NCBI GenBank assembly: GCA_026395755.1
Contig: JAPLYC010000073.1
Coordinates: 1 to 46,960 of the forward strand
Source of the DNA: Candidatus Parcubacteria bacterium
Lineage (GTDB): Bacteria > Patescibacteriota > Patescibacteriia > CAIXNZ01
DNA: 46,960 nt
Reading direction: 5' to 3'
Part shown: one piece after another, positions 5,367 through 26,087 of the stretch
Layout: the number at the start of each line of letters is the position of its first letter
Numbering within the stretch: the first letter of the stretch is position 1
Position numbers and translations under genes: made by a program
The notes under the pieces: model-generated
The model's input: only the letters and a program-made list of their open reading frames with translations
Told to the model about the DNA's origin: nothing
The model's database searches: none

Positions 5367-7117
5367 AAATTTTGCTTGGTGTCACCGGAAGTGTGGCAGC
5401 AAAACTCACTCCCAAACTGGTAAAGCTCCTGCTCAAGCAGGGGCATGTGGTTCAGGTCGTGGCCACGGAAAAATCTCTCTATTTCTGGAACCAGGATCAG
5501 CTGGAAGTTCCGGTTGTGACTGAAGCTGATGAATGGCCGGGAATTCAGTATGATCAGGATGCTGCCATTACCCATATTGCTTTGCGGGAATGGGCAGATC
5601 TGATGCTGATTGCTCCGCTGACAGCCAACACTCTCGGCAAAATGGCCAATGGTTTGTGTGACAATCTGCTGACCAGCATTGTCCGTGCCTGGGACAGGCA
5701 AAAACCTGTTGTGGTGGCACCGGCCATGAACACCAAGATGTGGGAGCATCCGCTGACTGCTGAACATCTGAATAAATTGGGGGAGTGGTATCCACTTTCC
5801 GTTGTCCAGCCAGTTGCTAAAAAATTGGCCTGCGGTGATTACGGCCTCGGAGCCATGGCTGATTTGGACAGCATTGTTCAGTCAGTTCAGGACGCAGTCA
5901 ATTCACTTAAGCAAAAGAAGCAAGAACCCAAAAGCAACAAAAAAATTACAGTCATCGGCGGACCCATTGCTCAGGCGATTGATCCGGTGCTGAATCTGGT
6001 TCCGACCGGTAAAGGAAAATTGGCACATCAGGTTGCCTCAGAATTTTCCAAACACTTCAACGAGGTGGATCGACTGGGCAATTTTGAAGGCAGTAAAAAA
6101 TGCGACTACGTCGATCTGGAGCAGGAAGTTCTTAATTTGCAAAGTGACGTGGTAATTTTTCTGCCGCATATCGCCAATGTCCTGGTGGAAAAACAAAACG
6201 CCAAGATCCGCGTGGCTGAAGGCTGGACCGGTGAGATTAAAATTACTGGCGCGCCCAAACTGCTCAATCTGGTTAAAAAGTTTCATCCCGAAGTTCTGCT
6301 GGTTCCGTTCAAACTGGCTGAAGCTGACATGGGCAAGGCCGAGATCGTAAAGTGGATGTTGGAATCCCATGCGGCTCTGGCAGTTTATTCCCGCCTGGGA
6401 AATTCTCAGTCCTTCTGGATCATCGATGCCCTGGGTAACGAGATCCCAGTCAGCAAAAATGATTTGCCGGGTGAATTGGTTGCTCAGGTAAAAAAATATC
6501 TGCAGGCTGTCAGGCGCCGCAGCGTCAAAATCGGCGAAGCAGTGCCTGAAGTTCCGCATCTGGAAACCTGGGTAAATTTTTCCCGCAAGATGCAGCCGGC
6601 TTTTTCTCAGCTCATGGAAAGAAATGTGGCCACGGGCCGCTGGCCAGGCAATTTTTCTTTCCGTTGCACCCACGGCTTTCTGTCCGAGCGTTGCGAGCAG
6701 GGCTTTGTCATCACTAAGCGCAATGTAGCTAAAAGCGGATTGCAGCCCGATGACTTTGTTCTGGTCAATTTGGAGCTGGAAGATGATCAATTGTCTTACC
6801 AGGCCAAAGGGGAAGCCAAACCCAGCATTGATGCGCCGATCCACCGTTTGATTTATGAAAAATTAGCCTGGGTCAAAAGCATTGTGCACGGGCATTTGCA
6901 CATTGTTCTTCCCCCAGAGATTGACTTCATGCTAGAACAATGGCCTTGCGGTGCGGAAAACGAAGCTTTGGAGCTTCTGGAAATCGCGCCTCAAGAAACC
7001 GTTCCTTTATGGGTAATCAATATTTCCGGTCACGGTTTTATCGCCCTCATCGGCGCTGAAGATCCGTCTGATTCTCTGGAAGAATTGAGCCGGCTTGATT
7101 ACCGGGTTACCTATTAA
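5363..7117 (+). CDS. coaC: Fusion of CoaC/Hal3-like flavoprotein decarboxylase + degenerate CoaB-like domain + class II aldolase/adducin-like domain
   Basis: KILLGVTGSVAA, HIALREWAD, APLTANTLGK, PAMNTKMW, KKLACGDYG; then VIGGP..AIDPV...PKLL...PFKL; then GNFSFR...PSIDAPIHRLIY...IVHGH...GHG; ATGA overlap with coaB. Confidence 0.75.
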   Translation: MKILLGVTGSVAAKLTPKLVKLLLKQGHVVQVVATEKSLYFWNQDQLEVPVVTEADEWPGIQYDQDAAITHIALREWADLMLIAPLTANTLGKMANGLCDNLLTSIVRAWDRQKPVVVAPAMNTKMWEHPLTAEHLNKLGEWYPLSVVQPVAKKLACGDYGLGAMADLDSIVQSVQDAVNSLKQKKQEPKSNKKITVIGGPIAQAIDPVLNLVPTGKGKLAHQVASEFSKHFNEVDRLGNFEGSKKCDYVDLEQEVLNLQSDVVIFLPHIANVLVEKQNAKIRVAEGWTGEIKITGAPKLLNLVKKFHPEVLLVPFKLAEADMGKAEIVKWMLESHAALAVYSRLGNSQSFWIIDALGNEIPVSKNDLPGELVAQVKKYLQAVRRRSVKIGEAVPEVPHLETWVNFSRKMQPAFSQLMERNVATGRWPGNFSFRCTHGFLSERCEQGFVITKRNVAKSGLQPDDFVLVNLELEDDQLSYQAKGEAKPSIDAPIHRLIYEKLAWVKSIVHGHLHIVLPPEIDFMLEQWPCGAENEALELLEIAPQETVPLWVINISGHGFIALIGAEDPSDSLEELSRLDYRVTY

Positions 7118-10682: not shown

Positions 10683-10769
10683 CGTGATTCGTTATCCGGT
10701 ATCGTTTGGCGTTTCGTTTTACGTTTGTCGTTTGTCGAAACGTAACCCGAAACCGAAAAACGATAAACG
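10683..10769. repeat. CG-ladder element copy 1 (14/14 CG)
   Basis: CG at offsets 0,7,14,20,27,32,39,46,53,58,65,71,78,85; CGTTTCG/CGAAACG cores. Confidence 0.9.
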
Positions 10770-14435: not shown

Positions 14436-17400
14436 ATGATTTTCAATCAAGCCAAGCCATTAGAATTTGACGGCATCAGATTAAAGCTAGCTTCTCCCGA
14501 AGTAATTAGAATCTGGTCGCACGGCGAAGTTACCAAGCCGGAAACGATTAATTATCGGACGCAAAAACCGGAAAAAGACGGCTTATTCTGCGAGAAAATT
14601 TTCGGGCCGTCTAAAGATTGGGAATGCTACTGCGGCAAATATAAAAAGATCAGGTATAAGGGGATTATTTGCGATAAGTGCGGCGTGGAAGTTACTCATT
14701 CCATGGTCAGACGCGAACGCATGGGGCATATTGAATTATGCTCGCCGGTTTCGCACATCTGGTTTTTACGCGGCGTGCCTTCACGCCTAGGTTTAGTTTT
14801 GGATATTTCCGTGCAAAGCCTGGAAAAGGTGATTTATTTTGCCAGCTTCATAATTACTAAAGTTAATCAGGAGCTGAAAGCCCAGGCAATGGAGCAGCTG
14901 AAGGAAGAATACAAAACTAAGAAAAAGCAGATAGAGGCTAATTTTAAAAACCGTGTCAATCAGATTAAAACCAATAAAAGTCTCAAGGAAAAAGAGCAGG
15001 ATAAAAAAATAATTGAATTAAACAAGGAAAGAGATCTGGAAGCAGCGGAATTCGAAAAAGAATATGTTAAAACCGAGACTGATTTAAAGGATCTAAAAAT
15101 AAAAAAAATTATTTCCGAGGATCAATATCAGGATTTGTCTCTTAAATTCGGCCATATTTTTGAAGTGGCCATCGGCGCTGAAGCGGTCAGAAAATTATTG
15201 GAGGTAATTGATCTGGAAAAATTAGTAAAAAGCTTGGACGCGGAATTAGAAGAGGCAATCGGCACCAAAAGAGAAAGAGCTGTTAAACGTATCAAGCTGG
15301 TTAAAAACTTGGTTAAAAATAAAATCAGGCCTGAATGGATGATTTTGAATATGATCCCCGTTATCCCGCCCGATTTAAGGCCAATGGTGCCTTTAGACGG
15401 CGGTCGTTTTGCCACCTCTGATTTAAATGATTTATATCGTCGCGTCATCAATAGAAATAACCGTTTGAAAAAACTGAAGGAATTAAATGCCCCGGAAGTT
15501 ATTATCCGCAATGAAAAAAGAATGCTTCAGGAAGCTGTTGATGCTTTGTTGGATAACAGCGCCAGACACTCAAAAACAACTACGGCTTCTACCGGCCAAA
15601 AAAGACAGTTGAAATCCATTGCTGATATTTTAAAAGGCAAGCAAGGCCGCTTCAGACAGAATTTACTGGGTAAACGTACTGATTATTCAGGCCGCAGCGT
15701 TATTGTCGTCGGTCCGAATTTGAAGTTGCACCAATGCGGTTTGCCCAAGCGCATGGCCTTGGAATTATTTAAGCCGTTTGTCATCAGTCAGCTCATTAAA
15801 CGTGAATTTGTCCATAATATCAGAAGCGCCAATAGGTTTATTGAAAGCAATCGTCCGGAAATCTGGGATATTTTGGAAGAAATAGTTAAAGACGCTCATG
15901 TCTTATTGAATCGCGCTCCGACTTTGCACCGTTTGGGCATCCAAGCTTTTAAGCCGATTTTAATTGAAGGTAAAGCTATTCACTTGCATCCTTTGGTTTG
16001 CGCTGCTTTTAATGCCGATTTTGACGGCGATCAGATGGCTGTTCATGTGCCTTTGACGGAACAAGCTAAAAACGAGGCCAAAGAATTGATGCTATCATCT
16101 AAAAATTTATTAAAGCCGGCAACAGGAAATCCTATCACCACTCCAAGAATGGATATTGTCTGGGGCTGCTATTATATAACGGAATTAAAGAGGTTGCGGG
16201 AAAAACCTCGATCTTTTGGTTCCTTTGAAGAAGCTGTTTTAGCTTATAACTCAAAGATCATTACTGTTTCTGAAGAAATTGAAGCCCGTGATATTTTACC
16301 GGGAAAAAAGAAACCGGAAAGAATTATTACCAATGTCGGCCGCATCTTATTTAACCGTTTATTACCTTCGGAAATAGGATTTTATAATGAACAGATAACC
16401 ACTAAAAATCTGGGTGATTTGATTAAATTTTCCCTGGAAAAAATGGGTAAGGATAGGACGGCCAGATTGCTTGATGACATTAAAGATCTTGGCTTTAAGT
16501 TTTTAACCCTAAGCGGTTATTCCTGGGGTATGGATGATTTGCCGGATTTAGTAGGTAAAAAGGAAATTGTAGATACCGGCGATCTCCAGATTGATGAAGT
16601 TAACGATCAGTTTCAGCAGGGTTTACTGACCAAGAGCGAGCGTCATTCAAAAATTATTGAAATTTGGACAGCAATTAAGGATAAAATCGTGCAGCTGGGC
16701 AAAGATTCATTGAATAAAGAAGGCCCGGTATATTCCATGGTAACTTCAGGGGCTCGCGGTTCCTGGACTCAGGTGACGCAGATGGTCGGGATGAAAGGCT
16801 TAGTGGCCAATCCGGCCGGTGAAATTATTGAACTGCCTGTCAAAGCCAGTTTCAAAGAAGGCTTTGATGTTTTGGAATATTTTATTTCTACTCATGGTTC
16901 CAGAAAAGGCTTATCAGATACTGCTTTAAGAACCGCCAATGCCGGTTATTTAACCCGTCGTTTAGTTGACGTTTCTCAGGACGTGGTAGTTCGTGAGGAA
17001 GATTGTGGCGATAAAAAAGGCATGCTTTATACTAAAAAAGATAGCGATGAAATCGGCGTTAATTTATTGGAGCGCGTCTGGGGCAGGGTTTGTCTGGAAA
17101 AAATTACCGATCCTAAAACAGGTGAAGTTGTCGTTGATAAAGATCAATTGATTACTGAAGCAGTAGTGCGCAAATTACAGCCCTTGAATCTGGAGCAGCT
17201 TACTGTCCGATCAGTTTTAACCTGCAAAATGACCAAAGGCCTTTGCACTAAATGTTATGGCTATGACCTGGGTTATAATGAAATGGTTAAATTGGGCGTA
17301 GCTGTAGGTATTATCGCGGCTCAAAGTATTGGTGAACCAGGCACCCAGCTGACCATGAGAACTTTCCATACTGGCGGTGTGGCCGGCACTGATATCACCC

Positions 17401-18323
17401 AAGGTTTGCCTCGCGTGGAAGAACTTTTTGAAGCTCGTCCGCCCAAACGCAAAGCAATTCTGGCTGAAGAAGACGGCCTAGCCACAATTTCTGATGCGCC
17501 GAAGAAAATTGAAGATGAAAAAGGCCGTGTCTTATTCAGCACTACCCATGGCCAAAAGATATTAAAGATAAAATTTGATGATGTGGAAGAGGACACCTAT
17601 TCTTTTAAAGGCCAATCCCCGACGCTGAAAGTCAAAGAAGGGGATAAGGTTTCTAAAGATGAAATCTTGTTTAAATTAGGCAAAACAGAAATGAAAGTTA
17701 AAAGACCAGGCGTGGTTAAAGTTACTGAAAAAACCGTAAAAGTAATCAGCAACGTTGAAAAGGAAAAAGAATATCTGATCCCGCAGGGCTATCGTTTATG
17801 GATCAATGACGGAGATTTTGTTAAAAAAGGCGATCAATTGACTGAAGGCAGTTTAGATTTACATCAATTATATAAGCTTAAAGGCCGCGATGAAGTCAAG
17901 CGTTATGTGGTTAAAGAAATCCAGTATATTTACGCTTCTCAAGGACAGCGTTTGAATGAAAAGCATATCGAAGTCATTATTAAGCAATTATTCAGCCGTG
18001 TCTTAATTAAAGATGCCGGGGATACCAATTTATTGCCCGGTGAAATCGTGGAAAAAGCTGAGATGGATGAAGCTAATATCGAGATTGATAAAACCGATGG
18101 CAAACACGCTACTTCTGAGGAATTATTTCTGGGCATTACCAAGGTTTCTCTGACCACCCGCAGTTTCTTATCGGCTGCTTCTTTTCAGGAAACTTCCCGT
18201 GTGCTGATTAATGCGGCTTTAACCGGTAAGATTGATAAGCTGGAAGGCTTGAAGGAAAATGTCATTATTGGCCGTTTGATTCCGGCCGGCACAGGTTTTA
18301 AAAGGAAGCCAAAGGAAGAATAG
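14436..18323 (+). CDS. rpoC: RNA polymerase beta' subunit
   Basis: Zn finger CYCGKYK...CDKC, NADFDGDQMAVH catalytic motif, GEPGTQLTMRTFH. Confidence 0.99.
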   Translation: MIFNQAKPLEFDGIRLKLASPEVIRIWSHGEVTKPETINYRTQKPEKDGLFCEKIFGPSKDWECYCGKYKKIRYKGIICDKCGVEVTHSMVRRERMGHIELCSPVSHIWFLRGVPSRLGLVLDISVQSLEKVIYFASFIITKVNQELKAQAMEQLKEEYKTKKKQIEANFKNRVNQIKTNKSLKEKEQDKKIIELNKERDLEAAEFEKEYVKTETDLKDLKIKKIISEDQYQDLSLKFGHIFEVAIGAEAVRKLLEVIDLEKLVKSLDAELEEAIGTKRERAVKRIKLVKNLVKNKIRPEWMILNMIPVIPPDLRPMVPLDGGRFATSDLNDLYRRVINRNNRLKKLKELNAPEVIIRNEKRMLQEAVDALLDNSARHSKTTTASTGQKRQLKSIADILKGKQGRFRQNLLGKRTDYSGRSVIVVGPNLKLHQCGLPKRMALELFKPFVISQLIKREFVHNIRSANRFIESNRPEIWDILEEIVKDAHVLLNRAPTLHRLGIQAFKPILIEGKAIHLHPLVCAAFNADFDGDQMAVHVPLTEQAKNEAKELMLSSKNLLKPATGNPITTPRMDIVWGCYYITELKRLREKPRSFGSFEEAVLAYNSKIITVSEEIEARDILPGKKKPERIITNVGRILFNRLLPSEIGFYNEQITTKNLGDLIKFSLEKMGKDRTARLLDDIKDLGFKFLTLSGYSWGMDDLPDLVGKKEIVDTGDLQIDEVNDQFQQGLLTKSERHSKIIEIWTAIKDKIVQLGKDSLNKEGPVYSMVTSGARGSWTQVTQMVGMKGLVANPAGEIIELPVKASFKEGFDVLEYFISTHGSRKGLSDTALRTANAGYLTRRLVDVSQDVVVREEDCGDKKGMLYTKKDSDEIGVNLLERVWGRVCLEKITDPKTGEVVVDKDQLITEAVVRKLQPLNLEQLTVRSVLTCKMTKGLCTKCYGYDLGYNEMVKLGVAVGIIAAQSIGEPGTQLTMRTFHTGGVAGTDITQGLPRVEELFEARPPKRKAILAEEDGLATISDAPKKIEDEKGRVLFSTTHGQKILKIKFDDVEEDTYSFKGQSPTLKVKEGDKVSKDEILFKLGKTEMKVKRPGVVKVTEKTVKVISNVEKEKEYLIPQGYRLWINDGDFVKKGDQLTEGSLDLHQLYKLKGRDEVKRYVVKEIQYIYASQGQRLNEKHIEVIIKQLFSRVLIKDAGDTNLLPGEIVEKAEMDEANIEIDKTDGKHATSEELFLGITKVSLTTRSFLSAASFQETSRVLINAALTGKIDKLEGLKENVIIGRLIPAGTGFKRKPKEE

Positions 18324-18343
18324 GAAATTGTAAGTTAATATAT

Positions 18344-18379
18344 AAAAAAACACTTCTCAGAAATGAGGGGTGTTTTTTT
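18344..18379 (+). terminator. rpoBC terminator
   Basis: A7-CACTTCTCA-gaaa-TGAGGGGTG-T7. Confidence 0.85.
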
Positions 18380-18383
18380 ATTT

Positions 18384-18470
18384 CGTTTATCGTATTACGG
18401 TTTCGGTTAACGTTTCGACAGACGTATTAAGTGATACGAAACGCCAAACGAAACCGAAGAACGTCTCACG
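18384..18470. repeat. CG-ladder element copy 2 (13/14 CG)
   Basis: Same offsets as copy 1; offset 46 is AG. Confidence 0.9.
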
Positions 18471-18560
18471 AAACAGCTATTTTGGTCAAAACAGACTGAC
18501 AAAATTAGAGTTAATAGATATGAATTTATCTAATTTTAGCCAAGATGTAACCAAGGGGGC

Positions 18561-18654
18561 TTGACAAGTCTCTTTAGATATGATATTATGGCAAATCACG
18601 CTAAAAAAGGGTAGAGATGCTCCTCTTGACAAAATGATTAAAACGTGCTATACT
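18561..18654 (+). promoter_or_regulatory. Two tandem near-consensus sigma70 promoters
   Basis: TTGACA-N17-TATTAT (18561-18589) and TTGACA-N17-TATACT (18626-18654), both with extended TG. Confidence 0.8.
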
Positions 18655-18685
18655 TATAAAACATGAAATTTGAAAATTAAGCGAT

Positions 18686-18940
18686 TTAGTGACCAGCAAT
18701 ATGGGGGTAGTAGTGCATTAGGGTCAGTAGAGTTTTCCGGCCCTGCTAGAAAACTTCTACGCCTGGTGTTTAACTGATAAGGCTCTGTCCTATATCAGTC
18801 GTTCCGCTTTGCGGGACAACACCTCCATATTATTGGTCATTAAGTTCGAGATTCAGACTAAGGGCAATATAGAGTTCCATTCATTTAAATGTACTTTTAA
18901 ACAAAGCGGGACTCCTTGAGCCCTTTGTCGGGATCTTGAA
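18686..18940 (+). ncRNA. Structured leader/ncRNA: ~22-bp closing stem enclosing three hairpins, then a second long stem
   Basis: TTAGTGACCAGCAATATGGGGG pairs with CCTCCATATTATTGGTCATTAA (G-U pairs on +); 18845-18865 pairs with 18920-18940. Confidence 0.6.
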
Positions 18941-18982
18941 AACTTTTATCTGTTCTCAAAACAACAAACAAAAGGAGGGGCA

Positions 18983-19111
18983 ATGAAAGCGTATGTCATG
19001 ATGACTAAAAACAGCATTGTGCGCCTAGTTCCTCTGGGACTGGCGCGGCACTACGAAAGGGTTGGCCTCGGAATGATCGTGGCCTTCCTGATCCATGGTC
19101 AGCTGCACTAG
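18983..19111 (+). CDS. 42-aa small protein MKAYVMMTKNSIVRLVPLGLARHYERVGLGMIVAFLIHGQLH (not in ORF track)
   Basis: AAGGAGGGG SD directly before the ATG; TAG stop at 19109-19111. Confidence 0.55.
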   Translation: MKAYVMMTKNSIVRLVPLGLARHYERVGLGMIVAFLIHGQLH

Positions 19112-19302
19112 GCTGACACCAAATCAAGATTCGCAGCACGAGGGACTTACAAAAGTCCCTACTTCATCTCAAGACGGGATAGTCTCGTGTAGATTATTTT
19201 GTCTTGAGATGAGGTCTATAATGATGATCTTTCAAATTTATTGGTGGAGAAATCCACGCCCTATCAGGGAGAAATTCCTGATATAACCAAAGGAGGACTA
19301 CC

Positions 19303-20148
19303 ATGACTGATCCCAATACCACCCCGGCCACCGACACCCCGACCGAAACCGTGATCGAGCCCAAGGCTGAGGAACAGGTTTACACCTGCGCCTGCTGCGG
19401 ACACGAAGCCACGGCCGAAGACGGCGTGGTCACCGAGCAGGTGAACGGCAAGCCGAAGATCGTCGACGCGACCATGTGGGCCGCGGCCGGCGAAGTCGGA
19501 TCCGAAACCGTGCTCAAGGTCTTCTGCAAGACCTGCGCGACCGAGGGCAAAGAGGACGACGGACAGACGTTCTTCCCGCTGAAGAACGCCCTGGCCTATG
19601 CCGACCGCGTCAAACGGCACTTTCCCAAGCGCGAGCGTTTGCTCGAGCAGGCGAACGAGCCGGAGATGCGGCAGCCGCGTCCCGAGATGTTCTGCAAGCG
19701 GTGCGGAAAGCGCCACGGGCAGATCGATAACTATCGGGGCGGGGTGACCGTCATCCGCAGAGCCTACCGCGTCGACTTCAATCAGAAGCCGATCATCGCG
19801 GAGTTCCTGTGCGGTGAGTGCCTCACGGAGCTTGGGCTCGTGCCCAAGAGGAATTCCGACGGCAGCTTCACGCAGCCCGAGGGACTTTTTCCCCCGTGGA
19901 AGACGCTTCAGATCGCCCTGCATGCGGAGGACAATCGTCTCGATCGGATCGAGAGGGACAAAGCCAACAAGGCACGGCGTGAAGAACAGCGTCAGCGGGA
20001 CAAAGAACTGCGTGAGCGGGCCATGGCTCCCAAGGCCGCCCCGACCACGAAGGTCTTCCAGCGTCCCGTCAGGCACGAACCCCTGGGCAAGGCCGGCACC
20101 GGTTCCATCGGGAAACCCGCCAACCGCAAGGACGGCACTCGCGGCTAA
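19303..20148 (+). CDS. Orphan GC-rich protein with four CxxC pairs (two putative Zn fingers) and a basic/charged C-terminus
   Basis: AAGGAGG SD; CACC, CKTC, CKRC, CGEC; strong GC3 bias. Confidence 0.8.
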   Translation: MTDPNTTPATDTPTETVIEPKAEEQVYTCACCGHEATAEDGVVTEQVNGKPKIVDATMWAAAGEVGSETVLKVFCKTCATEGKEDDGQTFFPLKNALAYADRVKRHFPKRERLLEQANEPEMRQPRPEMFCKRCGKRHGQIDNYRGGVTVIRRAYRVDFNQKPIIAEFLCGECLTELGLVPKRNSDGSFTQPEGLFPPWKTLQIALHAEDNRLDRIERDKANKARREEQRQRDKELRERAMAPKAAPTTKVFQRPVRHEPLGKAGTGSIGKPANRKDGTRG

Positions 20149-20243
20149 CCGGTCGCTCTTTGGAAAAATCTTGGCTAAATGCCAAGTTGGGATAATGGTA
20201 GATATGCTACCAACCTAATCCCGTTAAACAACAGGTTACGAAC

Positions 20244-20759
20244 ATCCCAAATATTTTCAGTTAATTCTGGAATATATTGGGATACTTGGAGAGGATCCAA
20301 TCTGCGAAAGCAATGATGGTCAAAGACCATTCTATTACTTAAGCAGACATCCCGTCGGGTAGAGACATTTACTGTCCTGCCCTACTTTCTGAGACCGTAA
20401 AGCAATTTGCGGTTTGAGAAAGTGAGCCCTTGACAGAATTAATAATTCTTGCTAAGCTTGCAAAGGAATTTTCCCGAGATGCCCCGTTGGCTCTCTGAAA
20501 AGATCTTCGCCTGATGCGGAGTTTGGGCAAATGGCTGCTTTGACAGCCAACCTGGCCCTGAAAAACGAAAGGTTTTGACAACGTTCCTATTATTCCCTGG
20601 GGAATATAGAGAGGAACACATTGGAGAGGATCCAAATCTGTTGCGGCAATAATGGAAGGTTAACAACTATTCCTGCGCCAAAACAGGCAAATCTCCAGGG
20701 GCGAGACCTAGTTTCGCCCAACTTTCTGAGACCGTAAAGCAATTTGCGGTTTGAGAAAG
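20244..20759 (+). ncRNA. Two tandem copies (~337-nt period) of a structured RNA module
   Basis: Identical 39-mer ACTTTCTGAGACCGTAAAGCAATTTGCGGTTTGAGAAAG at 20384-20422 and 20721-20759; TTGGAGAGGATCCAA at 20286 and 20621; sequence-divergent but structurally equivalent hairpins between them. Confidence 0.7.
20430..20458 (+). promoter_or_regulatory. Internal sigma70 promoter between the two RNA modules
   Basis: TTGACA-N17-TAAGCT with extended TG. Confidence 0.65.
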
Positions 20760-22036
20760 ACAAAGGTTAAAAAGTTCATATAACCTTGCCACCTTATCCT
20801 AGAACGGAAAGCTTGATAAAGTAATTAAATGCTGATTCAGCAGAAAAACAAGTTTGCGTTCTTAGATAAGGAAGTATTTTGAAAATATTTTAAAAAGGAG
20901 GACGTGTGAACCGGAAGGCTTTTTTTTGCGGCAAAATCAGGGGACCGCCCCTGAGTAAGTTCGAGGAGACAGGATAAAACTCCCGATCGACGCCAAAGGA
21001 GCCAATATGCGCTGGAAATTCAAGTTGAGCGCGGGGACCTGAGACCCCGAGTACACTCAGGTACTGGTAAAGAGCAATTTTTATCAGTAAGGTAATGTAG
21101 TCGTGTCAGCCTGGATACGTGATCATCGCCCAGCTCGGGCAGATTCGCGGATCTTGACGCGGCGAGGTACTGCGCTCCAAAATCACCGGGAACCATACGG
21201 AGGTACTATGACCTTCCCAAGCGGTTTCACCTAGTTACTTAGCTCACTCACCCCGGGCCGAAGATGCCCTCTGTGAAGCTTCGGACTGTACGCTGCTGCT
21301 TACCGGCATAGGTTTGCCGGACACATCCAGGCAGCAGTCCACGGCTGGTTTGACACACTGGAACCGGGCGCCATGCCCATCGTTCAAACCAACTCACCGC
21401 TTCTCCATACCTCGGAGGACAAACAATGCCTGAATTACGGCTCTTGTCTCGGGGTTCCTGGATCCCCTGAATGCAAAAATAAAAACCAGGGACAGCCTGC
21501 TCGAAGATTTTGAGCAGCCGACAAAGAAGCCAGAACGTTTGGGTTCATAAATCTTTGGACTGTCTGCTCGATAGAGTAGGCCCCAAAGTGACTCGAACGT
21601 TTAGGCGAAAAACACTCCTTGCAGAACTCTAAAAAGGGATTAGACAGTTACGACCGGCCAAGTGCCTAACTAACTAGTCATCCCACACAAGTAAGATAAA
21701 GAGATTCTGGCAAGGAACCGACTTTAATAAAGAAGCACGCATCGCCGGACCCGGCACCGAGTTTTCGGTAGCCTTCCCGGCACGCTTTCAGGCCCACCCG
21801 ACGCCTTACCGTTGCAACGCGAAGTCGTTGACGGCCCCGCCGAACCCGGCACTTGCGCTGACTCCTTGTCGAGCGCTCCGCCGAACCGGCAGTATCCTTA
21901 CGGGTAGCGGCCAGACCAGGGGCCGGGGTGCGAGACGCTACGTTTCGCCCCCGGCCCACGCACTAGATTAATCGAGAAAACAGGAAAAAGAAACAGAGGA
22001 GACTTCTAGCCCTTTCAGTCACCTAAAGAGAAAGGG

Positions 22037-22065
22037 GCGCCAAGTGTAACAGCTTGGCGTTTTTT
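22037..22065 (+). terminator. Terminator closing the structured island
   Basis: GCGCCAAG-loop-CTTGGCGT followed by a T tract. Confidence 0.75.
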
Positions 22066-22070
22066 AATTT

Positions 22071-22157
22071 CGTCACACGATTATCGGTATCGGTTTACGT
22101 TTCGGCTAGCGGTTAACGTACAACGTAACGTTTACCTACACCGTTTAACGACAAACG
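22071..22157. repeat. CG-ladder element copy 3 (13/14 CG)
   Basis: Same offsets; offset 65 is CT. Confidence 0.9.
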
Positions 22158-22195
22158 AAAAAGCCAGCCCTTTGCGAACAAAGAGCTGGCTTTTT
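22158..22195 (-). terminator. HU terminator (bidirectional)
   Basis: A5-GCCAGCCCTTTG-cgaa-CAAAGAGCTGGC-T5. Confidence 0.85.
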
Positions 22196-22218
22196 ATATG
22201 TGGGTAGTAGTTTATAGA

Positions 22219-22515
22219 TTAAGCCGCGGGAGCTTCTTTTTTCTTCAAGGCATCTTTTAAGGCCTTGCCGGATTTAAATTTGGGAATAATAACTTCAGGA
22301 ATGTCGATTTTTTCAGAAGGTTTTTGAGGATTAACGCCTTTGCGCGCGTGTCTGATTTTGGCTGAAAAAGTGCCAAAGCCGGTTAAGACGACTTCTTCGT
22401 TTTTTTGCAAAGATTCAATGATGGAATCCAGCATGGTTTCCAAAACCTCCTCAATCTGTTTTTTTGTTAATTTTGTTTTTGAGGCTACGACCTCAATTAG
22501 AGCGGCTTTGTTCAT
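22219..22515 (-). CDS. hup: DNA-binding protein HU
   Basis: MNKAALIEVVA...LTGFGTFS...ARKGVNPQ...PKFKSGKALKDAL. Confidence 0.96.
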   Translation of the reverse strand: MNKAALIEVVASKTKLTKKQIEEVLETMLDSIIESLQKNEEVVLTGFGTFSAKIRHARKGVNPQKPSEKIDIPEVIIPKFKSGKALKDALKKKEAPAA

Positions 22516-22576
22516 ATGGGTTGGTAAGGTTAGATTAAGTTATATAAGGTTATATTAGGTTTTATAAGGTTGCTCT

Positions 22577-22660
22577 GAAATACGGATTATTTTCACTGAT
22601 TCCACGGATACATTTTAAATTATTAAAATCTGTGTTATCCGTGAACAAAATCCGTGGTTC
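22577..22660. repeat. ACGGAT/ATCCGT ~9-nt-periodic palindromic element in the HU leader
   Basis: GAAATACGGATT..TCACTGATTCCACGGAT ... ATCTGTGTTATCCGTGA..AATCCGTGGTTC. Confidence 0.7.
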
Positions 22661-22705
22661 TTTTTTAGCCAATATTACCTTAATTACATTATATACCCTA
22701 ATACT

Positions 22706-23509
22706 TTAGATTTCAACATCTATCCACACCCTCTCGATTTTGACGGCTTTTTGGGTTTTGGTATCAATTTCCAGATAAACGCCGTTAATTTGGCAGATTC
22801 CACTTTCCGGAATCTCTCCTGGGTCATTAACCTGGCTTAAAAAGTTTTTGATAATGATTCTTTTATCCAAACCAATCACAGAATTTTTAGCTCCGGTCAT
22901 GCCAACATCGGAAATATAAGCTGTGCCTTGTTCTAATATTTGGTCATCTGCAGTCTGCACATGCGTATGACTGCCAATAAAGGCGGAAATCCGGCCGTCC
23001 AGATAAAAGCCCAAAGCTCTTTTTTCGCTGGTAGCTTCGGCGTGGAAATCAACAATAATAGCGGCTAAATTCTCATGCTTATGTTTCTCAAGGATTTTAT
23101 CAACGCAGCGAAACGGGTCATCAAAATCTTCCCGAAAAAAGACGCGGCCGACTAAATTGATAATTAAAATTGATTTTAGGCCAACTTGAACCACTTTATC
23201 GCCGCTACCCGGCGTGTCCTCGGGGTAATTGGCCGGTCTAACCAGGGGAAAGTCCTTTTTACTCAGCAGAATATAGGCGTCTTTTTTATCCCAGACGTGA
23301 TTGCCGGAGGTGAAAAAATCAATGCCTGCTGCCATCATTTCCTGTGTGGTTGTTTCGGTCAGGCCTTTGCCATGAGACAGATTTTCACCATTGGCAATTA
23401 CCAAATCAGGCTCATACTTTTTCTTGAGCTTGGGCAGACCGGCAATTACAGCCTGGCGGCCGATTTTGCCAAAGATGTCGCCGAGGAATAATATTTTGAG
23501 GTTGGACAT
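22706..23509 (-). CDS. ymdB: YmdB-like (TIGR00282) metallophosphoesterase
   Basis: ILFLGDIFGKIGR, NGEN, TSGNHVWD, RPANYP, DFHAEATSEK, GSHTHVQTAD. Confidence 0.95.
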   Translation of the reverse strand: MSNLKILFLGDIFGKIGRQAVIAGLPKLKKKYEPDLVIANGENLSHGKGLTETTTQEMMAAGIDFFTSGNHVWDKKDAYILLSKKDFPLVRPANYPEDTPGSGDKVVQVGLKSILIINLVGRVFFREDFDDPFRCVDKILEKHKHENLAAIIVDFHAEATSEKRALGFYLDGRISAFIGSHTHVQTADDQILEQGTAYISDVGMTGAKNSVIGLDKRIIIKNFLSQVNDPGEIPESGICQINGVYLEIDTKTQKAVKIERVWIDVEI

Positions 23510-23515
23510 ATTTTT

Positions 23516-23602
23516 CGTATTACGTTATTCGGTATCGGTTAAGGTTTCGTTAAACGTTTAACGTATATCGAAACGAATGTCGAAACCGTAAAACGATAAA
23601 CG
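23516..23602. repeat. CG-ladder element copy 4 (13/14 CG), filling the rny-ymdB spacer
   Basis: Same offsets; offset 27 is GG. Confidence 0.9.
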
Positions 23603-25952: not shown

Positions 25953-26000
25953 TAATAAGTAAAGGGATTTTTTAAATCCTTTTTATTATCTAAAATTATT

Positions 26001-26087
26001 CGTTATTCGTTTGTCGGTGTCGGTTAGTGTTTCGTTAGACGTTTATCGATAGACGAAACGAATGCCGAAACCGAATAACGTTTTACG
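26001..26087. repeat. CG-ladder element copy 5 (13/14 CG), in the infB 5' UTR
   Basis: Same offsets; offset 27 is TG; ends 3 nt before the infB ATG. Confidence 0.9.

Follow-up and report, generated by a model that had tools for sequence, protein, structure and literature searches.

A locus of highly structured, largely non-coding RNA separates rpoC from hup in one Patescibacteria family

The window analysed here is a 46,960-nt stretch of DNA (positions 1 to 46,960 of contig JAPLYC010000073.1, assembly GCA_026395755.1) from a Candidatus Parcubacteria bacterium. Our subject is the island that fills the gap (18324–22218) between two of its genes, rpoC (14436–18323) and hup (22219–22515, minus strand; Pfam HU, 2.4e-27). 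The gap is a mostly non-coding, strongly folded plus-strand RNA locus. An initial annotation of the window had described it as largely non-coding, and the count agrees: with open reading frames (ORFs) called under table 11, 975 of 3895 nt are coding and ~75% are not. Two ORFs only are credible between rpoC and hup, 18983–19111 (42 aa) and 19303–20148 (281 aa). Three-base codon-position periodicity in GC is strong solely over the second (GC1/2/3 = 0.63/0.46/0.82), weak over the first and not found in 20150–22066. The GC-rich Zn-finger gene of the initial annotation is thus real, and is the 281-aa Zn-ribbon ORF. For the sole tail ORF of at least 90 aa, on the minus strand at 21678–21959 (93 aa), no homologue was found.

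The modules of the island follow in the order rpoC, RNA A, small ORF, hairpin H, one ORF rich in GC at third codon positions (GC3), module T, ORF-free tail and hup. From its sequence signals the locus would be one plus-strand unit of ~3.4 kb, predicted to run from two near-consensus sigma-70-type promoters to the terminator at 22036–22065. Family genomes are given below as G numbers, contigs as C numbers and loci as L numbers; z is the fold z-score. The features are as follows.

18342..18381, plus strand: rpoC intrinsic terminator, an 18-bp stem then a T run; 5′ boundary of the island
18384..18472, strand not applicable: ladder repeat copy (nhmmer), interspersed genome-wide, outside the unit
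18561..18589, plus strand: promoter P1, TTGACA, 17 nt, TATTAT, with TG; 11 of 12 consensus positions
18626..18654, plus strand: promoter P2, TTGACA, 17 nt, TATACT, with TG; 11 of 12 consensus positions
18684..18847, plus strand: RNA A domain 1, a long closing stem around a multi-stem junction (RNAalifold on 9 and 23 sequences)
18845..18940, plus strand: RNA A domain 2, a long hairpin with compensatory pairs in the 23-sequence alignment
18983..19111, plus strand: 42-aa ORF with a Shine–Dalgarno (SD) sequence, 45% identical to its G001 counterpart (tblastn 2e-12)
19161..19215, plus strand: hairpin H, a 24–25 bp continuous helix with a CGUGU loop; dG −34, z −8.5
19303..20148, plus strand: double Zn-ribbon protein, 281 aa, with a long helix and a basic tail; GC3 0.82
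20149..20425, plus strand: R1, a structured unit of ~275 nt ending in module T (20352–20422); z −7.6
20484..20765, plus strand: R2, second copy of the ~275-nt unit, ending in module T (20699–20759); z of the T part −7.3
20792..20871, plus strand: hairpin K, with an H-like outer stem and a larger branched apex; z −5.35
20877..21110, plus strand: conserved non-coding block after K, ~95% identical to G001
21111..22035, plus strand: ORF-free tail, GC 46–60%, partly common to G001 only
22036..22065, plus strand: intrinsic terminator ending the unit, a stem then UUUUUU; z −5.65
22068..22160, strand not applicable: ladder repeat copy (nhmmer), interspersed genome-wide, outside the unit

Both tandem promoters and the terminator had been noted in the initial annotation, and all three stand. 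The hexamers of P1 and P2 are conserved in an alignment of nine family islands, but P1 is absent from G005 and P2 from G008. Just 5′ of P1, at operator position, lies a double TTAGCTAA-like motif (18526–18543) that is conserved in relatives. The terminator at 22036–22065 is seen in the sequence and is absent from the output of a terminator pattern scan; the terminator-like sites which that scan gave on the plus strand within the unit are all weak, and no terminator lies behind RNA A. An apparent −35 box at 20172 was rejected, since it forms one arm of a covarying hairpin.

Most relatives have a small ORF in the place of the 42-aa ORF, without homology from one genus to the next: in other genera the small ORFs here, with GGAGG, are unrelated, and G002 has none.

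RNA motifs of the island

Fold energies were compared with dinucleotide shuffles (20 each). The plus-strand z is −8.5 for 18660–18950, −7.6 for 20149–20425, −4.6 for 20484–20765, −6.9 for 21400–21740 and −3.8 for 21740–22066; with 100 shuffles, 20765–21240 gives −4.4 on the plus strand and −2.0 on the minus strand. For comparison, z is −1.2, +1.6 and +0.3 in three coding controls, and the minus strand of the non-coding segments folds more weakly than the plus strand in every case. Together with covariation and conservation in relatives, these z-scores bear out the call of a plus-strand locus of structured non-coding RNA made in the initial annotation. Structural conservation in relatives, on which that call hung, is present: A, H and T all vary by compensatory pairs.

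No known RNA family accounts for the island. Rfam 15 at gathering score gives no match in the whole window, and thus none to GOLLD, ROOL, OLE, group I/II introns, tmRNA or RNase P, which had been suggested as comparisons, nor to a riboswitch or small ribozyme. At E up to 5 the island has three matches, all in the rpoC terminator region and far below threshold. ARAGORN predicts neither kind of gene, tRNA or tmRNA, for the window; the genome carries its RNase P RNA and its tmRNA on other contigs.

RNA A, ~260 nt long, has two domains. Domain 1 is a closing stem of ~20 bp, in which an invariant AUAUGGGGGUAGUAGU pairs with ACCUCCAUAU, and encloses a junction of three hairpins. Domain 2 has an invariant AAGGGC/GCCCUU pairing and a palindromic loop, AAAUGUAC(A/U)UUU. 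RNAalifold counts 21 compensatory pairs of 64 with nine sequences aligned, and 28 of 60 when the alignment has 23. Scored with a covariance model of domain 1, the plus strand reaches 157 bits versus 31 for the minus strand. The model finds one plus-strand copy in each of 13 of the 14 family genomes, the exception being G009, whose island is cut by a contig end, and nothing in 147 genomes of other families of the class. In three metagenome loci (L048, L059 and L065) an insert of ~170 nt separates the two domains, which are therefore separable modules. With its multi-stem junction, invariant junction nucleotides and position directly upstream of an ORF in the same orientation, A looks like a riboswitch or cis-regulatory leader. 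A common function of the genes behind it, which would point to a ligand, is not seen; the small and main ORFs behind A are unrelated orphans. Nor is an expression platform seen, the SD lying ~40 nt behind domain 2 and unpaired in the consensus fold.

Hairpin H sits 86 nt upstream of the Zn-ribbon start codon, and 63–90 nt before the start codon in eight of nine family islands (329 nt in the exception, G002). Over 12 sequences, 95.8% of its cells are paired and 6 of 24 pairs are compensatory; none of 500 shuffles did as well. The H model scores 89.6 bits on the plus strand versus 42.4 on the minus strand, because several G.U pairs alternate with A-U in other copies. This asymmetry makes H an RNA or single-strand feature of the plus strand. 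The model matches three of three family genomes versus none of the 147 from other families. A tandem double H, with copies ~85–170 nt apart, stands ahead of the main ORF in five metagenome loci (L047, L059, L063, L073 and L074).

The present genome has four copies of H, one in the island and three on contig C89. At C89 7148–8345 (L036), H lies 47–81 nt before each of three unrelated GC3-rich small ORFs, and a GC-rich hairpin precedes the second and third copies. This array is a second syntenic locus of H (G000 C89; G005:C1 76563–79675, L037; G002:C19 330–402, L038) and adjoins a conserved membrane-protein gene. At the syntenic place in G005, five H stand in a row beside the same membrane-protein gene as in C89. 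The array ORFs headed by H are unrelated GC3-rich orphans, several of them Cys-rich.

Module T consists of two hairpins, the first GC-rich and the second with the conserved loop AAAGCAAUUUG. It lies behind the main ORF in nine of nine family islands, and in ten sequences 8 of the 16 pairs of the T hairpin are compensatory. The units R1 and R2 that end in T are 67% identical to each other, and both copies are also present in G001. Hairpin K behind them is the third-best match to the H model in the island, a weak one (14 bits, E 0.015). It is 80–96% identical in G001, G002 and G009, with compensatory changes, and is a candidate for a fourth RNA motif on the strength of four sequences.

In the conserved block after K, a stem of CCUGAG (21038–21043) with CUCAGG (21056–21061) keeps its pairing in G009 through a two-sided change. 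The block also holds two tiny ORFs with a strong SD, 20893–20977 (23 aa from GTG 20906) and 20998–21043 (11 aa from ATG 21008), neither conserved as protein. A small protein starting at 21008 and reading through an in-frame TGA was rejected: the codon is TGG in G009, yet this change is half of a compensatory pair, and from one genus to another the frame is not kept into the conserved block that comes next, CAGUAAGGUA. We read the region 20893–21043 as RNA structure, although the tiny ORFs behind K may be leader peptides. Further 3′, the tail has three copies of a GC-rich CGCCGRACCCGGCA-like word (21743–21757, 21838–21852 and 21868–21887), with a similar word in G001.

Distribution and the protein slot

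The island is a vertically inherited chromosomal locus specific to one Patescibacteria/Candidate Phyla Radiation (CPR) family. BLAST finds a match to it in all 13 other genomes of the family; outside, a single other family is matched, by short promoter-like stretches of 30–50 nt. The order rpoB, rpoC, island, hup (minus), ymdB (minus) is kept in six of eight fetched loci (G002, G006, G007, G012, G010 and G008). Of the other two, the G005 locus begins at the end of a contig, and in G001 a different neighbour lies upstream. The rpoC–hup gap in these relatives measures 2.4–4.9 kb. In G001, rpoC is not within 6.6 kb upstream of the island, and directly upstream of A lies a fragment (L020 ~6033–6260) which we take, from its translated sequence and without a family scan, to be of an IS200-like transposase; that rpoC is not adjacent suggests local rearrangement.

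A pattern scan for H gave seven records among 185,579 species genomes, metagenome-assembled genomes titled Candidatus Buchananbacteria, Parcubacteria and Falkowbacteria, and 30 metagenome contigs. Of these 30 loci, 23 have A upstream, and rpoC is visible in 16 and hup in 10; the others are short or are H arrays. Neither the H pattern nor the Zn-ribbon protein has a match in viral contigs, and blastn of the island against phages and plasmids gives none.

The protein encoded between H and T is a rarity. Four invariant CxxC pairs form two Zn-ribbon units in the 281-aa protein, whose relatives number three among 5.8 billion clustered proteins and, by profile search, 27 clusters among 1.84 billion representatives. 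Pfam has no family for 18 H-linked proteins. PHROGs has none for 16 H-linked proteins, except that one G005 array protein matches phrog_944, a phage moron membrane family, at 9e-18. Fold searches with the Zn-ribbon protein gave nothing significant with Foldseek against the PDB (best E 0.41) and nothing usable in a wide VIA-align search (best Z 4.5, a TRIM B-box/coiled-coil); the ESM Atlas holds no match of at least 0.9.

The slot does not always hold this protein. In G006, G007, G010 and G005 it is filled by an unrelated type 2 protein of 255–335 aa with basic ends and no Zn-ribbon, for which no family match was found. The initial annotation had taken the Zn-binding protein to be cognate to the RNA. 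The gene is there as described, but the idea of a cognate pair is weakened, as about half of the relatives hold the non-Zn protein while their RNA motifs are unchanged. Type 2 has no usable fold match by Foldseek against the PDB (best E 0.03), against BFVD (best E 1.3e-3 at TM 0.15), by VIA-align (best Z 4.9) or in the ESM Atlas. Its comparisons with the levivirus coats of Qbeta and MS2 fall below any trust level (Foldseek E 0.07–0.14; VIA-align Z 3.0–3.3 over 86–90 residues at a root-mean-square deviation of 5.0–5.7).

Cargo type shows no phylogenetic pattern. On a tree of A it changes seven times over 20 rows, versus a mean of 6.8 for shuffled labels; the well-supported branches force at least three changes, and G005 and G012, which are one genus, have different types. 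The slot has therefore been exchanged repeatedly by recombination. Cargo genes have a GC3 of 0.50–0.89 versus 0.36–0.46 in neighbouring genes, and the difference persists from genus to genus although the proteins diverge fast. This composition may come from a foreign source or from GC-biased conversion where a hot spot of recombination lies.

Possible roles of the locus

We rate the locus as a set of structured RNA motifs, particular to the family, that have a role in processing or regulation and are joined by an ORF slot of unusual, swappable kind. Our best reading, held with about even confidence, is that the island makes one long folded transcript, and that its RNA modules serve in the processing, stability or regulation of a variable basic protein. 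The modules would act in cis. The long duplex of H, and perhaps also K, would be an RNase III-type processing site, and cutting of the precursor would yield a stable A RNA, an ORF mRNA and stable tail RNAs. The ORF mRNA would be bounded by protective hairpins, H at the 5′ end and T at the 3′ end. H would mark the 5′ untranslated region (UTR) of the main ORF, and A would be a regulatory leader or a stable small RNA. The protein slot is swapped between lineages by recombination inside the conserved RNA scaffold.

Intercistronic hairpins cut by RNase III are known from phage T7 early mRNAs and from the E. coli rplJL-rpoBC and rpsO-pnp leaders. H resembles them as a duplex of at least ~20 bp between cistrons, there of a strongly transcribed operon, and hairpins left on the products could protect them. 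Its 24 pairs (25 bp at −34 kcal/mol in the minimum free energy fold) exceed the 20 bp of continuous double-stranded RNA taken as the minimum for RNase III, and the genome encodes the enzyme (PF14622, 134.7 bits, an open 237-aa frame on contig C58). The position of H between cistrons in the C89 array further supports processing. H differs from the known sites in being near-invariant across genera, with a fixed CGUGU loop, a recurrent C.A mismatch and two loci per genome.

Several points weigh against this reading. That there is one transcript, that it is processed and that the resulting pieces are stable are all predictions. RNase III recognition is known to need far less conservation than H shows, with its 90–98% identity across genera; near-invariance points to a sequence-specific partner or to homogenisation by recombination, and the same C.A mismatch stands in 7 of 12 H copies without explanation. 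Because the genes behind A vary, they point to no ligand and no regulatory logic. Most of the tail sequence is not conserved beyond the genus, so that much of the tail could be tolerated spacer, and 21110–21400 is no more folded than its shuffles (z −1.3, 20 shuffles). As for the slot, the tree of A has 310 columns and excludes 3 of its 23 rows, of cargo unknown; A may itself recombine, and two cargo labels are weak, L063 resting on 22% identity and L070 on counts of CxxC motifs.

The conservation of H could be explained if the basic slot protein, Zn-ribbon or type 2, bound H and/or the A, T and tail RNAs as a ribonucleoprotein (RNP), for example as an operator–repressor pair like phage coat protein with its hairpin, or as a packaging particle. 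A near-invariant H fits a sequence-specific protein site, its distance of 63–90 nt from the start codon in eight of nine islands suits such a role, and both protein types have basic N- or C-terminal tails. We consider an RNP, the idea of the initial annotation, possible but unlikely, as H, A and T stay unchanged beside two unrelated slot proteins, H in the arrays also precedes other unrelated small ORFs, and both proteins lack any known RNA-binding family and any fold match of significance. A combination of this idea with our best reading, quite improbable in our view, is an RNA-scaffolded gene slot, in which the processed A/H/T/K transcript would be assembled with either swapped basic protein and H would serve, through its sequence, as the operator or assembly hairpin. 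If true, it would be a family-specific RNP with a balanced two-allele protein, used in episymbiotic life and possibly descended from a capsid-less RNA element or a coat–operator pair. It is rather unlikely that A is instead a free-standing, trans-acting housekeeping RNA, such as a 6S-like regulator of RNA polymerase, with the rest of the island an unrelated variable region. A is single-copy in 13 of 14 family genomes and has its own strong tandem promoters next to rpoBC; the Rfam 6S model (RF00013) matches nothing in the genome, which leaves the 6S role unassigned, but this silence has little weight since that model finds 6S in five of 14 well-known control genomes. In E. coli ssrS-ygfA, 6S RNA is a structured RNA from tandem promoters that is co-transcribed with a downstream ORF. 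Unlike 6S RNA, A is a branched junction with a second hairpin and not a rod with a central bubble; no terminator lies behind it, and H follows A in every island examined.

The scatter of the slot ORF over the tree could also come from site-specific recombination, H, perhaps with T, being a folded single-strand site like attC, and ORFs being exchanged behind a fixed platform of A and the promoters. Integron cassette arrays and clusters of attC sites lacking integrases (CALIN) are alike in that a hairpin recurs between small ORFs which are unrelated, have no promoters of their own and are foreign in composition, all of them behind a fixed platform of promoters. The variable ORF behind H, the arrays of H and ORF units at the second syntenic locus, the tandem double H of the five metagenome loci and the foreign-looking GC3 of the cargo all fit. 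Yet H, whose ends are CCUCAUC ... GAUGAGG, does not have the attC core sites RYYYAAC/GTTRRRY; its centre is its most conserved part, with a conserved and not a variable loop; and it stands 47–90 nt before each start codon, not right after a stop codon as attC does. No integrase, transposase or reverse transcriptase was noticed among the ORFs of the window, in keeping with the initial annotation, nor an integrase beside the C89 array, an integrase-family scan being no part of either result and the rest of the genome unscanned. There are only two loci per genome, the G.U pairs and 5′ UTR position of H fit an RNA role, and the swapping calls for no dedicated enzyme, as homologous recombination in the conserved flanks accounts for it. 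We therefore think site-specific exchange distinctly improbable. It is scarcely credible that the non-coding parts are protein genes in decay or the remains of a prophage. The tail has GC-rich patches like the cargo ORFs, and the phage moron match of the G005 array protein (9e-18) points the same way, but an ORF-poor tail of 0.85–2.3 kb is kept in nine of nine family genomes and carries no codon-position signal. The conserved blocks vary by compensatory pairs and stay conserved where the reading frame shifts; phages, plasmids and viral contigs give no match, and the 93-aa ORF has no homologue.

Two further kinds of system invite comparison. Like GOLLD, ROOL, OLE, raiA and HEARO, the island is long, GC-enriched, ORF-free intergenic DNA in an AT-rich genome, supported by covariation. 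It differs in having no Rfam match, in uniting several small modules and a protein gene in one unit, and in being confined to a single family. Very few non-coding RNAs are known from CPR bacteria, whose genomes are small and dense in genes. The TIGR-Tas systems of CPR bacteria and phages have a Nop-domain Tas protein beside an array of short dual-spacer repeats (PMC12045711). They and the island share repeated structured RNA units in CPR genomes beside a small protein gene, and they differ in that Pfam finds no Nop-domain protein among the H-linked proteins and the repeats of the island are only two-copy. A literature search in which the supplements of preprints were outside the scope found no description of the rpoC–hup locus; the main text of a preprint on prokaryotic non-coding families, its supplements likewise outside the scope, has none of the CPR or rpoC terms looked for.

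This family thus devotes 2.4–4.9 kb beside its RNA polymerase genes to mostly folded RNA. The locus gives at least three covariation-supported RNA motifs without an Rfam match (A, H and T), and a protein slot that alternates between two unrelated orphan families whose codon usage is far from that of the host (GC3 up to 0.89). From organisms beyond present genetic handling it offers candidate RNA processing signals, a candidate regulatory RNA specific to the family and a candidate hot spot of recombination, where conversion may be GC-biased.

Ladder repeats in the flanking DNA

The initial annotation had bracketed the island between two copies of a CG-rich ladder element, and suggested that it had been mobilised as a cassette between them. 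The copies are where they were described. A ladder is ~90 nt long with a CG every 6–7 nt, and its observed/expected CpG ratio is 3.29 versus 0.97 for the genome. We built a hidden Markov model from the four copies first seen, and it matches 90 loci, or one in roughly every 16 kb of the 1.46-Mb genome. Of these, five fall inside the window (the two beside the island, the second matched over 22071–22160, and 10683–10769, 23514–23602 and 25999–26087), all between large ORFs. The two that flank the island are thus two of five in the window and two of 90 in the genome, so that the bracketing is not special.

Mobilisation between ladders finds no support. The island is syntenic in six of eight relatives' loci, and no ladder lies beside it there; in 273 kb of relatives' loci the model matches three places, all in the same genus (G001 and G002) and none adjoining the island. 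Contigs of four other DNA runs, searched over 17000–23500, cover the island in pieces and hold no same-strand joint that skips it. The ladder-to-ladder joints in those contigs are on opposite strands with sides of 18–37 nt, which is what other copies of the ladder should give.

The ladders form an interspersed repeat of their own, recent and genus-level, that has settled in the intergenic DNA on either side; they neither define nor move the island, and a false lead is thereby removed. They have dyad symmetry over their whole length (87 of the 90 loci matched on both strands), and with many dispersed copies of one length they have the form of an interspersed palindromic repeat, like repetitive extragenic palindromes (REP) or miniature inverted-repeat transposable elements (MITEs). 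A ladder may serve as an array of protein-binding sites or as a target of methylation, or may be a MITE-like element.

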